Below, piece after piece: positions 25,510-31,900 of a stretch of 64,000 nucleotides of DNA. This stretch comes from an uncultured Frankiaceae bacterium (GTDB taxonomy: Bacteria; Actinomycetota; Actinomycetes; BP-191): positions 15,274 through 79,273 of the forward strand of contig CAZYXZ010000001.1 in the NCBI GenBank assembly GCA_964651395.1. The letters are read 5' to 3'. Every line of letters begins with the position of its first letter. Position 1 is the first letter of the stretch. The position numbers and the translations under genes were made by a program. The notes beneath the pieces were generated by a model, which was not told where the DNA came from, did no database searches, and was given only the letters and a program-made list of their open reading frames with translations.

Positions 25510-27606
25510 TCACGAGCGCACCCCGGAACCGTCGAGCACGGTACGGAGGGTGGAGAGCAGGAAGTCCTCGGTGAACGGCTTCTCCAGGATCACGGCGGCG
25601 GGGTCGACCAGCTCATGGCCGGCCATGACGTCGGCGCTGTAGCCGGACATGTACACCACCGGCACGGCCGGGCGCAGGCTGTGGAGGCGCTCCGCCAGGT
25701 CACGGCCGGTCAGCCCACCCGGCATCACGACGTCCGTGAGGACGAGGTCCATGTCGTTCTCGAGGAGGTAGTCGAGCGCCATGGGGGCGTCGGCGGCGGC
25801 CCACACCTGGTAGCCGGCTCGCTCGAGCATGCGGATCGTGGCCAGCCGCACTCCGGGCTCGTCCTCCACGACCAGGATCCGCTCACCCCGGGCCGGACGG
25901 CTCGGTCCGGTCGTCGGCTGCGCGTCGAGGACGGCGTCACTGGTCACGGGAAGCTCGACCACGATCTCCGTGCCGAGACCCGGTGCGCTGTGTATCGCCG
26001 CGTGACCGCCCCAGCGGGTGACGATGCCGTAGACCGTGGCGAGACCGAGTCCAGTGCCCTTGCCGGGACCCTTGGTCGTGTAGAAGGGCTCGAACGCCCG
26101 CGTCGCGACCTCCTCGGTCATGCCCTCGCCGTTGTCCGTGACCACGAGCCGCACGACGTGCTCGTCGCTTTCCGTCCTCAGGCCGATCCGGCCACCGCGC
26201 GGGAGTGCGTCGCGGGCGTTGACCGCCAGGTTGAGCACCACCTGCTCGAGCTCCGTCGCGTCGGCCAGGACGGTGCATGGGTCCGGACTCGTCGTCATCT
26301 CCAGCTCGACGTCCTCGCCGAGGGTTCGGCGGAGCAGCTTGCCCATGTTGTTCACCACTGCGTTGAGGTCGATGACCTGCGGATCGACCTGGTCCCTGCG
26401 GCTGAAGATGAGCAGCTGCCGGGTGAGCTCCGCGGCGCGGTTGGCGGCCCTGCGCACCTCCTCCACGTCGTCGCGGAGCCGAGGTGTGTGGACCTCCTCG
26501 GCGATGAAGCCGGTGTAGCTCAGGATCACCGCGAGCAGGTTGTTGAAGTCGTGGGCGATGCCGCCCGCGAGCCGGCCGACCGCCTCCATGCGCTGCGCCT
26601 GGCGCAGCTCTCCTTCCAGCTTGACCCTCGCGGCCACGGCTGCCTTCTCCTCGGCCACGGCATGGTCGAGCGCCGTGTTCTTGCTCTCGAGGTCGGCGAC
26701 CAGGCGCATCGCCTCGTCCCGGCGGCGCATGGCCGACTCCAGCAAGGCGACGACGATGAGCAGGGCCAGCAGGAACCCGCCGGCCAGGATCTTCGGCAGC
26801 GCTCCCGCGACCGCGCCCGAGGGGTGCGCCGTGGGATGCATGACGACGAGGATCGCCGTGGGCGGGACGGTCAGCTCGCCGGGCGCGGGGTCGACCACGG
26901 CGCGGGCGAAGTCTTCCTGGGACTCGGTCTGGTCGATGACGACGTAGGCGCGCTGGCCCGACAGCGGCAGCTCGGCGGTGGACGAGAAGACGACCTGGCC
27001 GGTGTCCTCCGCGCCGAGGTAGATCGCGAACTGCATGTCCGACATGTAGGAGTTGCCCGGAATGGTGTCCTGCACCAGGTCGGCGGGAAGCGGCATCTCG
27101 GCGTACACCACATAGCCCGGCGGCAGGTACGGCGAGCCGATGGCGGTCCCCATGCGGCGAGCCGGCCCGGCACCGGCGAAACCGGTGATGGCGAACCCGG
27201 CGCCGTTGCTGACCCGGGAGAGCTCGGCGGCCAGATCGCTGCCCGAGGTCGGCCTCCCGGCGGCCTGGCCGGCCGTCGCCAGCTGCGTGACCCCCGCGGG
27301 CTGCACGCGGAGAAGGGAGAGGCTGGCGTAGCCGTCGGCCGCCCCGATCAGCGGCGACGCCAGGCGCGTGAACACGGCGGGGTCCGGCGTCGCGCCGGCG
27401 GAGCCCGCCAAGCTGGCGAGCCCGGTCTTCATCTGCGTGAGCATGCTGCTCATGACCATGCCGGCCTCGCTGGCCTGGTCCTGCAGGAGGCGACGGTCGT
27501 TGGCTGCGACGATCCGCGCGACGCTCTCATGCGTGACGCCGGCGACGGCGAGGCCGCCGAGCAGCAGCAGTGTGGTCATGCGGTGCAGGCGTGGCAGGCC
27601 GGTCAT
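25510..27606 (-). CDS. Hybrid sensor histidine kinase/response regulator with periplasmic sensor domain
   Basis: TM helix, extracytoplasmic region, second TM. 'HDFNNLLAVI' H-box, HATPase (G-boxes), C-terminal receiver 'ILVVEDEPGVR...LVLTDVVMPG'. Confidence 0.8.
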   Translation of the reverse strand: MTGLPRLHRMTTLLLLGGLAVAGVTHESVARIVAANDRRLLQDQASEAGMVMSSMLTQMKTGLASLAGSAGATPDPAVFTRLASPLIGAADGYASLSLLRVQPAGVTQLATAGQAAGRPTSGSDLAAELSRVSNGAGFAITGFAGAGPARRMGTAIGSPYLPPGYVVYAEMPLPADLVQDTIPGNSYMSDMQFAIYLGAEDTGQVVFSSTAELPLSGQRAYVVIDQTESQEDFARAVVDPAPGELTVPPTAILVVMHPTAHPSGAVAGALPKILAGGFLLALLIVVALLESAMRRRDEAMRLVADLESKNTALDHAVAEEKAAVAARVKLEGELRQAQRMEAVGRLAGGIAHDFNNLLAVILSYTGFIAEEVHTPRLRDDVEEVRRAANRAAELTRQLLIFSRRDQVDPQVIDLNAVVNNMGKLLRRTLGEDVELEMTTSPDPCTVLADATELEQVVLNLAVNARDALPRGGRIGLRTESDEHVVRLVVTDNGEGMTEEVATRAFEPFYTTKGPGKGTGLGLATVYGIVTRWGGHAAIHSAPGLGTEIVVELPVTSDAVLDAQPTTGPSRPARGERILVVEDEPGVRLATIRMLERAGYQVWAAADAPMALDYLLENDMDLVLTDVVMPGGLTGRDLAERLHSLRPAVPVVYMSGYSADVMAGHELVDPAAVILEKPFTEDFLLSTLRTVLDGSGVRS

Positions 27607-27852
27607 GTCGGCTCCTCGGGCTTCGGATGCCGACACACTGCTATCGCCGCGGTGAGGTCACCATGGCCCGTCGTAATGAACTGCACATAGCCCGACGTGC
27701 GGTACATCGTGGGACTTTCGTCCCACGTCCACAGGTATCTCGGCCCAGGGGGAATTCCCCTCAATTCGCTATGGCTGTCGGTGCCGCCAGCACGCAGCCT
27801 GGGCGATCTCGACGACACCCGGACGGTGGCCCATGCCTGAACGTGCGCGACA

Positions 27853-31199: not shown

Positions 31200-31414
31200 C
31201 CCTCGTCGAGCAGCCGGCACCCGGTCGTCGTATCCGGGGTTCGGCCGGCGGTCGCGCGGGCGTCAGGAGCCTTGCCGCAGGCGCCGGGTGGGCTATACCT
31301 TGAAGAAGGAGAGGCCGTGGCCTCTCCTTCTTCGGTTCGGTCGGCCCCGTCGGCCGCGAGTTCTCATGGCGGCGGAGCTAGTCTTGCCGGGGGTTCCGGG
31401 GGCAGGGGGGAGCG

Positions 31415-31900
31415 GTGATGGGGACGAACCGCAGCGATGGGCCAGACGTCTTCGGCGGGCTTCGCCCGCTCGAGGGTCCGCTGGCGCCCATCCCGGCCGA
31501 TGCGCTGCGTATCGAGGTCAGCGCCCATGCCGACGTGGCGCTGCCCGTGCTGCGTGGTGTGGTCGGTCGCCTGGCTCGCGCGGCCGGGTTGTCCGAGGAG
31601 CGAGCGGAGGCTGCTTCCCTCGCCGTGCACGAGCTGACGACGAACAGCCTCGCGCACGCCGACGACGCGTGCCTGCTGCACGTGTGGCACACCGCGCACG
31701 GGATCGCGGCAAGCATCACCGACTCCGGCTCGCTGTCGGAGGAGATGCTGGGGGAGCCGCAGTTCCTCGCCGAGCGTGGTCGTGGTCTGTGGCTCGCGAG
31801 CCGGCTCTGCGACCTCGCCGAGGTGCAGACCGGTCCCGGCGGCACCGAGATCCGCATCGCGGTGCACCGTGAACGGGCGGCGGAGATGACGGCCGGCTAG
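31415..31900 (+). CDS. Anti-sigma regulatory factor (RsbW/SpoIIAB-like Ser/Thr kinase, HATPase_c_2)
   Basis: 'LAVHELTTNSLAHA...ERGRGLWLASRLCDLAEVQTGPGGTEIRI' is typical of the GHKL anti-sigma kinase family. Confidence 0.6.
   Translation: MMGTNRSDGPDVFGGLRPLEGPLAPIPADALRIEVSAHADVALPVLRGVVGRLARAAGLSEERAEAASLAVHELTTNSLAHADDACLLHVWHTAHGIAASITDSGSLSEEMLGEPQFLAERGRGLWLASRLCDLAEVQTGPGGTEIRIAVHRERAAEMTAG

Follow-up and report, generated by a model that had tools for sequence, protein, structure and literature searches.

The closest described relatives of the protein examined here are the ATPases MshE of Vibrio cholerae, PilF of Thermus and PilB of Geobacter and Myxococcus, which combine tandem MshEN motifs, an N1 domain, a PilB-type N2 and C-terminal core, and a tetracysteine site. 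In its strict form, the MshEN receptor motif for cyclic di-GMP (c-di-GMP) consists of two tandem 24-residue stretches, RLGxx[LVI][LVI]xxG[LVI][LVI]xxxxLxxxLxxQ, and a short spacer (Wang et al., 2016, PMC5013675). In some actinobacteria a MshEN-domain protein is the sole receptor known for c-di-GMP (PMC5013675). Variants with an additional domain are listed in Supplementary Table 4 of the same paper, i.e.: REC-MshEN-T2SSE, found in Proteobacteria (e.g. Geobacter metallireducens Gmet_3473), and MshEN-T2SSE-cNMPbind, but not a protein in which MshEN and T2SSE are followed by a double zinc ribbon (DZR) and a receiver (REC). Here we describe an ATPase encoded in a 64-kb stretch of DNA from an uncultured Frankiaceae bacterium (hereafter the window), which shares its MshEN, core and zinc-ribbon residues and its place in the tree with an actinobacterial clade of precisely this MshEN-T2SSE-DZR-REC architecture. 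The copy in the window lacks the receiver and lies among signalling genes, which an initial annotation had read as a module running from c-di-GMP through the ATPase to a kinase.

The gene and its parts are the following:

27853..29841, plus strand: PilB/GspE-type hexameric ATPase of 662 amino acids, MshEN - T2SSE - double zinc ribbon, without a receiver (Pfam, NCBIfam, AlphaFold2, Foldseek)
27910..27981, plus strand: first 24-residue MshEN c-di-GMP half-site, residues 20-43, an exact match to the strict motif
28012..28083, plus strand: second half-site, residues 54-77, matching only the relaxed motif of Wang et al. 2016
28084..28329, plus strand: MshEN_C / T2SSE_N1 subdomain, residues 78-159 (Pfam MshEN PF05157, 4.9e-17)
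28429..29580, plus strand: T2SSE ATPase core, residues 193-576 (Pfam T2SSE, 1e-128)
28867-28890, plus strand: Walker A motif GPTGSGKT, read from the sequence
29266-29382, plus strand: tetracysteine site CTQC...CGEC, with CxxC pairs at residues 472 and 507
29614..29745, plus strand: double zinc ribbon tail, residues 588-631, with CRAC, CPWC, CGHC and CPWC as four extra CxxC pairs at 588, 602, 614 and 628

The near-perfect MshEN motif and the second, degenerate repeat proposed by the initial annotation are both present. In the second half-site the terminal Gln is replaced by Arg and both Leu by Ile, and the spacer between the half-sites has 10 residues, versus 5 in V. cholerae MshE. A search of the six-frame translation of the whole window with the relaxed motif returned only these two half-sites, while triplet shuffles gave on average 0.1 relaxed and 0 strict matches. 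Profile and structure predictions for the N-terminal domain agree: NCBIfam NF053729 ('c-di-GMP_motif, MshE-related') matches residues 20-75 with 44.5 bits (cut-off 38), and the AlphaFold2 model places helices 21-27, 33-45, 55-61 and 67-78, all with a predicted local distance difference test score (pLDDT) above 90, in a four-helix bundle that is followed by MshEN_C/N1. The first 166 residues also match the sequences of solved N-terminal domains (PilF, 2.7e-25; Geobacter PilB, 1e-15; V. cholerae MshEN 5htl, 9e-15). Conservation among 47 family members is high in both half-sites: L25 and Q43 are invariant and R20, G22, G29 and L40 at least 90% conserved in the first, and G56 is invariant and R54, L55 and G63 at least 90% conserved in the second. 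In XpsE, substitutions are known that abolish c-di-GMP binding (PMC5013675); at the corresponding positions the window ATPase differs non-conservatively only at Q61 (Arg), L54 and L58 being Ile. Sequence and model thus make the ATPase a credible c-di-GMP receptor.

The motor core is preserved as well. Walker A, the Asp box, Walker B, the His box and the tetracysteine site are all invariant among the 47 members, and the window protein has each of them in intact form. Foldseek aligns the core with PilF, PilB and GspE structures at 45-48% identity and target TM-scores of up to 0.93. The profile scores of the protein fall below both equivalog cut-offs (543.9 bits vs 675.65 for PilB TIGR02538, and 536.8 vs 630.25 for GspE TIGR02533). 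As previously noted, four further CxxC pairs lie beyond the tetracysteine site; the Pfam DZR model gives 27.1 bits over residues 588-631, 0.2 bits short of its cut-off of 27.3. Seven of the eight Cys of this tail (C588, C591, C602, C614, C617, C628, and C631) are invariant in the 47 members. Its second CxxC (residues 602-605) reads C-P-W-D in most of them, Asp standing there as the fourth ligand of the first ribbon, and the window protein and its closest relative, P0002, carry the full CPWC. AlphaFold2, run with the 47 family sequences, gave a mean pLDDT of 83.7, with about 60 in the zinc-ribbon tail. To judge by sequence and model, the 662-residue protein is an intact PilB/MshE-type hexameric ATPase. 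Compared to MshE, PilF, and PilB it differs in the double zinc ribbon, the 10-residue spacer and the Arg-ending second half-site, in its equivalog scores, and in not being encoded with PilC, pilins or other machine genes. A role in defence was considered and discarded, the PADLOC hit being only a P-loop match (E = 5.7e-4).

To place the protein we took its best 120 matches among 5.8 billion proteins (P0002-P0120 among them), which are 53-68% identical to it; their source genomes, assembled from metagenomes, carry the labels Frankiales, Frankiaceae, Mycobacteriales or Actinomycetota. These proteins are currently annotated as 'PilB' or 'T2SS/T4P/T4SS family ATPase', yet 111 of the 120 are about 775 residues long and carry a C-terminal Response_reg domain after the zinc ribbon, i.e.: the clade architecture is MshEN-T2SSE-double zinc ribbon-receiver. 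The receivers are of the canonical type: of the roughly 40 aligned members that bear one, 38-40 retain the acidic pair DD, the phospho-acceptor D, the T and the K. Since most members carry such a canonical C-terminal receiver, the clade is tied to two-component signalling. A neighbour-joining tree, built without bootstrap, joins the window protein with P0002, a receiver-bearing protein 68% identical to it, as the sister group of all other clade members, and the clade stands apart from generic PilBs. We found no description of this architecture in the literature, within an incomplete coverage that makes this no proof of novelty; the zinc ribbon and the C-terminal receiver are both missing from the MshEN architectures listed in PMC5013675. 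A known counterpart is the proteobacterial REC-MshEN-T2SSE protein, in which a receiver is likewise fused to a c-di-GMP-type PilB-like ATPase for dual inputs, phosphorylation and c-di-GMP. The receiver is N-terminal there, C-terminal after the double zinc ribbon in the actinobacterial clade, and absent from the window protein.

How the window copy came to be without a receiver can be read from P0002. The two proteins align without gaps over residues 19-637 and homology stops after the zinc ribbon; the window protein ends 31 residues past it (C631 of 662), and no receiver remnant was found downstream of the gene. The alignment and the lack of a remnant indicate that the receiver was lost in the window lineage. 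The loss has occurred independently in a few copies that keep the canonical position, e.g. P0097 and L005. A transfer of the family receiver into the neighbouring hybrid kinase was rejected, given that tblastn of the family receiver against the window reached only E = 2.7 there.

The initial annotation had also remarked that the ATPase stands apart from pilus and type II secretion system (T2SS) genes, and this applies to the whole window: the 64 kb contain neither a T2SSF (PilC/GspF) hit nor a prepilin-like motif, and no pilus or T2SS family came up when about 47 of the open reading frames (ORFs) in the window were scanned with Pfam. To see where relatives lie, we examined seven family genes on long contigs (L002, L003, L005, L014, L015, L101, and L102), all of the main clade. 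As controls served 39 generic PilB loci of at least 12 kb, drawn from 80 loci matched in metagenome contigs by patterns from the family alignment, and the T2SSF profile was built from five generic PilB loci, each with PilC/GspF immediately downstream. Of the seven family loci none had T2SSF within 10 kb on either side, compared with 28 of the 39 controls (Fisher p = 6e-4); a prepilin-like motif was likewise absent from all seven and present in 19 of the 39. A constant association of homologs with pilus or T2SS genes, named beforehand as the finding that would refute the initial annotation, is thus clearly not what the sampled loci show. The orphan position alone is weak evidence on function, because 11 of the 39 generic PilB loci likewise have no T2SSF nearby.

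All seven loci share one arrangement instead: [SH3/PRC-MgtE_N-CBS] - [DUF1003] - ATPase - MarR (opposite strand) - YceI or HpcH - mrp - tatA - htrA - rseB - anti-sigma - sigE-like. In four of them the ATPase follows DUF1003 immediately on one strand, about 20-60 bp separating the two; in two more the MgtE_N/CBS-DUF1003 pair is upstream with genes inserted, and it is absent upstream in L102. In the sampled loci, clade genes are therefore kept in a housekeeping neighbourhood, apart from pilus and secretion genes. No histidine kinase lies beside the ATPase in any of the seven. The window ATPase is outside this synteny, its neighbours being DUF6351, hybrid kinase, kinase, HATPase_c_2 and aminotransferase genes. 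As a side observation, two MgtE_N proteins of the family loci show faint FliG_M matches.

The remaining features of the cluster concern the genes around the ATPase:

25510..27636, minus strand: hybrid histidine kinase-receiver of 708 amino acids (HisKA, HATPase_c, Response_reg), divergent from the ATPase gene
27637..27852, no strand: divergent intergenic region of 216 bp, read from the sequence
29841..31199, plus strand: membrane histidine-kinase-like protein of 452 amino acids, whose start overlaps the ATPase stop (TGATG)
29841-30410, plus strand: His-rich sensor with six transmembrane segments, residues 1-190, read from the sequence
30471-30668, plus strand: HisKA domain with H-box SHEFRTP (41.4 bits; H220 at least 90% conserved)
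30801-31115, plus strand: degenerate HATPase_c domain (16 bits, cut-off 26.4)
31415..31900, plus strand: stand-alone HATPase_c_2 protein of 161 amino acids (Pfam PF13581, 2.1e-15, 57 bits)

Gene frames were chosen by third-position GC, one frame per gene; it amounts to 0.86-0.92 in the four genes of the cluster, in a window of 68-75% G+C. The junction between ATPase and kinase (29831-29850) reads CCGCGAGCTGATGAGCCTCA, with the TGA stop and the ATG start sharing base 29841 in a 4-bp overlap. Since the N-termini of kinase homologs line up with a start at 29841, the overlap is real, as had been claimed. The second gene is a histidine kinase only in part. It has six transmembrane segments and a HisKA domain with a normal H-box, but the catalytic domain falls below the model cut-off: the N box reads LTRLIEGLMPHG and lacks the Asn, there is no DxGxG G1 box, and G2 is GLRLF. 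AlphaFold2 modelled the protein with a pLDDT of 89.6, the fold of the catalytic domain confidently so.

We searched the same 5.8 billion proteins for relatives of this kinase and found no homolog above 50% identity. In the 14 closest (P0122-P0135), which are 41-50% identical, the N and G1 boxes are eroded in the same way. More distant homologs have all three boxes (N, G1, and G2) in canonical form. Three distinct homologs could be followed in five places, one of them on a short contig (L016, L017, L019, and L020 among the loci). Each of the three stands alone between rpsT and lepA, next to holA and comEC, with no ATPase in the vicinity. Because the H-box is kept while the N-box Asn and G1 are lost, this rpsT-lepA family may consist of pseudokinases or phosphatases in a housekeeping position. 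The kinase of the window shares with it the His-rich six-transmembrane domain, the H-box and the N/G1 erosion, and differs in being translationally coupled to an ATPase and in a G2 box degraded further (GLRLF vs GLGLY). As far as the data go, the pairing of ATPase and kinase is unique to the window genome: the database holds no closer ortholog of the kinase, and the same pairing in P0002 or another sequenced relative should have surfaced.

No Pfam or NCBIfam model covers the sensor domain of the kinase, and an exhaustive HMMER search recovered 2,778 cluster representatives at E <= 1e-3 (1,265 at E <= 1e-10); it is also N-terminal in GGDEF, GGDEF-EAL, PAS-kinase, methyl-accepting chemotaxis (MCP), and PP2C proteins. 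H97, E104, H106, H108, and H161 are invariant and H136 is at least 90% conserved, most of them inside predicted transmembrane helices, and two members give faint MHYT matches (E ~0.06). The domain may bind metal or haem. The window also holds copper-related genes, concentrated at 13279-14304, 17228-19465, 21382-23211, and 55239-56678, which include two multicopper oxidases, a P-type ATPase with an HMA domain, and a PQQ beta-propeller protein with a cupredoxin domain; these may bear on the ligand of the sensor.

A hybrid kinase-receiver indeed lies upstream, as initially annotated, with two transmembrane segments flanking a sensor region and then HisKA, HATPase_c, and REC domains. It has many full-length homologs of 40-46% identity. 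The single homolog whose context we examined (L103, 8001-11251, 45% identical) is followed by an overlapping REC-HD-GYP gene and has no ATPase nearby. REC-HD-GYP being a response regulator of the c-di-GMP phosphodiesterase type, this one locus suggests that the hybrid-kinase family controls c-di-GMP turnover elsewhere. As one homolog bears the JGI label 'PulG', we checked whether the hybrid kinase begins like a prepilin; this was rejected, the protein having no G-F-T-L-x-E motif. The earlier designation of the downstream gene as an RsbW-type kinase is weak. Its 161-residue product is a bare HATPase_c_2 domain that scores 17 bits with the NCBIfam RsbW model (cut-off 145) and 92 bits with RsbA (cut-off 210), and is most similar to RsbA-family proteins in their C-terminal half. 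The ORFs scanned at about 19.4-39.3 kb include neither a STAS nor a sigma gene, and 215 bp separate the gene from the kinase-like gene; its membership in the cluster is doubtful.

The explanation that accounts best for these data, and in which we place moderate confidence, is that the ATPase is a c-di-GMP-gated filament-type motor of the receiver clade, present in the window without its receiver, and that its pairing with the kinase is a lineage-specific juxtaposition. The four-helix MshEN bundle at the N-terminus would most likely bind c-di-GMP and gate ATPase activity, as sequence and model suggest. The window protein would belong to a basal branch of a large actinobacterial clade whose ancestral architecture was MshEN-T2SSE-double zinc ribbon-receiver, and in that clade the canonical phospho-acceptor receiver would add a second, kinase-dependent input. 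With phosphorylation as this second input, the signal in the clade probably runs from kinase to ATPase, and not from ATPase to kinase. A core that is 45-48% identical to true pilus extension motors, together with the retained N1 docking domain, suggests that the protein has most likely remained the motor of some membrane machine, type IV filament-like or other, whose genes lie elsewhere; it may serve a pilus or secretion system with partners encoded in another part of the genome. In the window, the copy has lost its receiver and lies outside the usual neighbourhood, in a variable region, where it shares one operon with an eroded relative of an otherwise stand-alone sensor kinase, and for these reasons we read the 'signalling cluster' as a juxtaposition peculiar to this lineage. 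What stands of the proposed module is an orphan, c-di-GMP-type ATPase linked to signalling. The conservation of the module does not stand: none of the seven ATPase loci has a kinase beside the ATPase, the three kinase homologs stand alone, and the hybrid-kinase homolog goes with REC-HD-GYP, so that the four genes are probably not a conserved signalling module.

Several observations weigh against this explanation. The terminal Gln is missing from the second half-site, and the half-sites are joined by a spacer double the length of that in MshE. The filament motor 'encoded elsewhere' is an assumption. The generic PilB loci without T2SSF count here too, the seven contexts are all from the main clade and do not include the closest relative, P0002, and the context of the hybrid kinase comes down to one locus. 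Finally, the 4-bp overlap speaks for co-expression, at the least, of ATPase and kinase, and a real functional link may exist in the source organism.

Such a link is the core of a competing explanation that we find unlikely, in which ATPase and overlapping kinase form a dedicated pair, the c-di-GMP-bound ATPase physically controlling a kinase defective in ATP binding, with the hybrid kinase and the HATPase_c_2 protein feeding the same pathway. The TGATG overlap implies one operon, although 4-bp overlaps are common anyway in high-GC operons. A kinase that keeps its H-box with neither N-box Asn nor G1, and whose HATPase_c domain scores 16 bits against 26.4, may need a partner; yet the stand-alone homologs between rpsT and lepA have the same eroded ATP-binding domain, so the erosion did not arise through coupling to an ATPase. 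Four signalling genes do lie together, elsewhere in the ATPase family the receiver makes the connection to two-component signalling, and the one examined hybrid-kinase homolog adjoins a gene for a REC-HD-GYP protein of the c-di-GMP phosphodiesterase type. Against this, the pairing has been seen only once, the ATPase copy that sits beside the kinases belongs to the receiver-less minority, and the HATPase_c_2 gene is 215 bp away and has no partner among the nearby ORFs scanned. A different departure, which we consider rather unlikely, would be that the whole family has left filament assembly and now works, under signal control, as a mechano-ATPase on some target other than a pilus, perhaps in connection with its conserved neighbours, the MgtE_N/CBS (cytosolic) and DUF1003 (membrane) proteins and the sigE-htrA-tatA-mrp envelope region. 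The absence of T2SSF and prepilins from all seven loci, the scores below the PilB and GspE equivalog cut-offs and a zinc ribbon and receiver without precedent among the MshEN architectures of PMC5013675 fit this idea, as does DUF1003, directly upstream in four of the seven loci and, with insertions, in two more. However, core and N1 domain show the same degree of conservation that true PilBs do, L102 has no upstream pair and the window copy is not adjacent to one. The MgtE_N/CBS-DUF1003 pair also occurs in actinobacteria without the ATPase, and its adjacency may be only positional.

In a further alternative, which we hold to be very improbable, the window copy would be a superfluous duplicate in decay, left behind in a variable, mobile region and devoid of a function of its own. 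It has lost the receiver and lies outside the family synteny, with an island of the cyclic oligonucleotide-based antiphage signalling system (CBASS) broken by an insertion sequence (IS) and a Tn7-like element about 5-20 kb downstream. But the frame is full-length with a third-position GC of 0.89, all family-invariant catalytic, zinc, and motif residues are kept, and receiver loss also affects copies in the canonical position. The boldest version of events would be that the clade, including the receiver-less window copy, is a pilus-independent ATPase gated by c-di-GMP and phosphorylation that does mechanical work on a non-filament target, and that was rewired here with a kinase-like sensor unable to bind ATP; we regard it as a tentative idea with a small chance of being right.

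The uncharacterised MshEN-PilB-zinc ribbon-receiver clade itself is a more interesting object than the cluster in the window. The window protein shares with it the MshEN domain, the core, the zinc-ribbon residues and its tree placement, and is set apart by the missing receiver, the position outside the synteny and, uniquely, the kinase gene that follows. The clade ATPase, with MshEN, double zinc ribbon, and receiver, vertically kept and unlinked to pilus genes, would, in soil lineages of the Frankiales/Mycobacteriales-like kind, be a candidate for a major effector of c-di-GMP. It would also show a secretion-type motor under two-component control in cis, and the target that the family drives would tell the role of c-di-GMP in these organisms. 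The kinase coupling, seen once, matters much less.

The genes on either side of the cluster are unrelated to it by Pfam: upstream lies one for a DUF6351 tannase-like protein, and downstream follow those for a class V aminotransferase and a BNR protein. The 216-bp divergent region contains two perfect palindromes, GTGGGAC-TTTC-GTCCCAC (27709-27726) and GGGGAATTCCCC (27749-27760), each occurring once in the window, which from their sequence could be operator sites. A promoter and terminator scan of the cluster called no sigma-70-like promoter and no terminator, and an inverted-repeat search of the cluster found none. Further downstream, a type II CBASS is encoded on the minus strand (TIR-SAVED effector at 36608-37975, E1-E2/Cap2 at 37945-39267, and CD-NTase cyclase at 41422-42204). 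An IS3-family transposase pair (40080-41371) lies between cyclase and Cap2, and the cyclase covers only positions 3-254 of a 322-position model; on both counts the cyclase looks disrupted by the insertion. Beyond it, also on the minus strand, follow Tn7/Tn5053-like genes for a TniB-like AAA protein (44333-45343), a Mu-type transposase (45343-47484), and two TniQ-domain proteins (48661-49494 and 49539-50714), in a region (44333-50714) of strongly positive GC skew.

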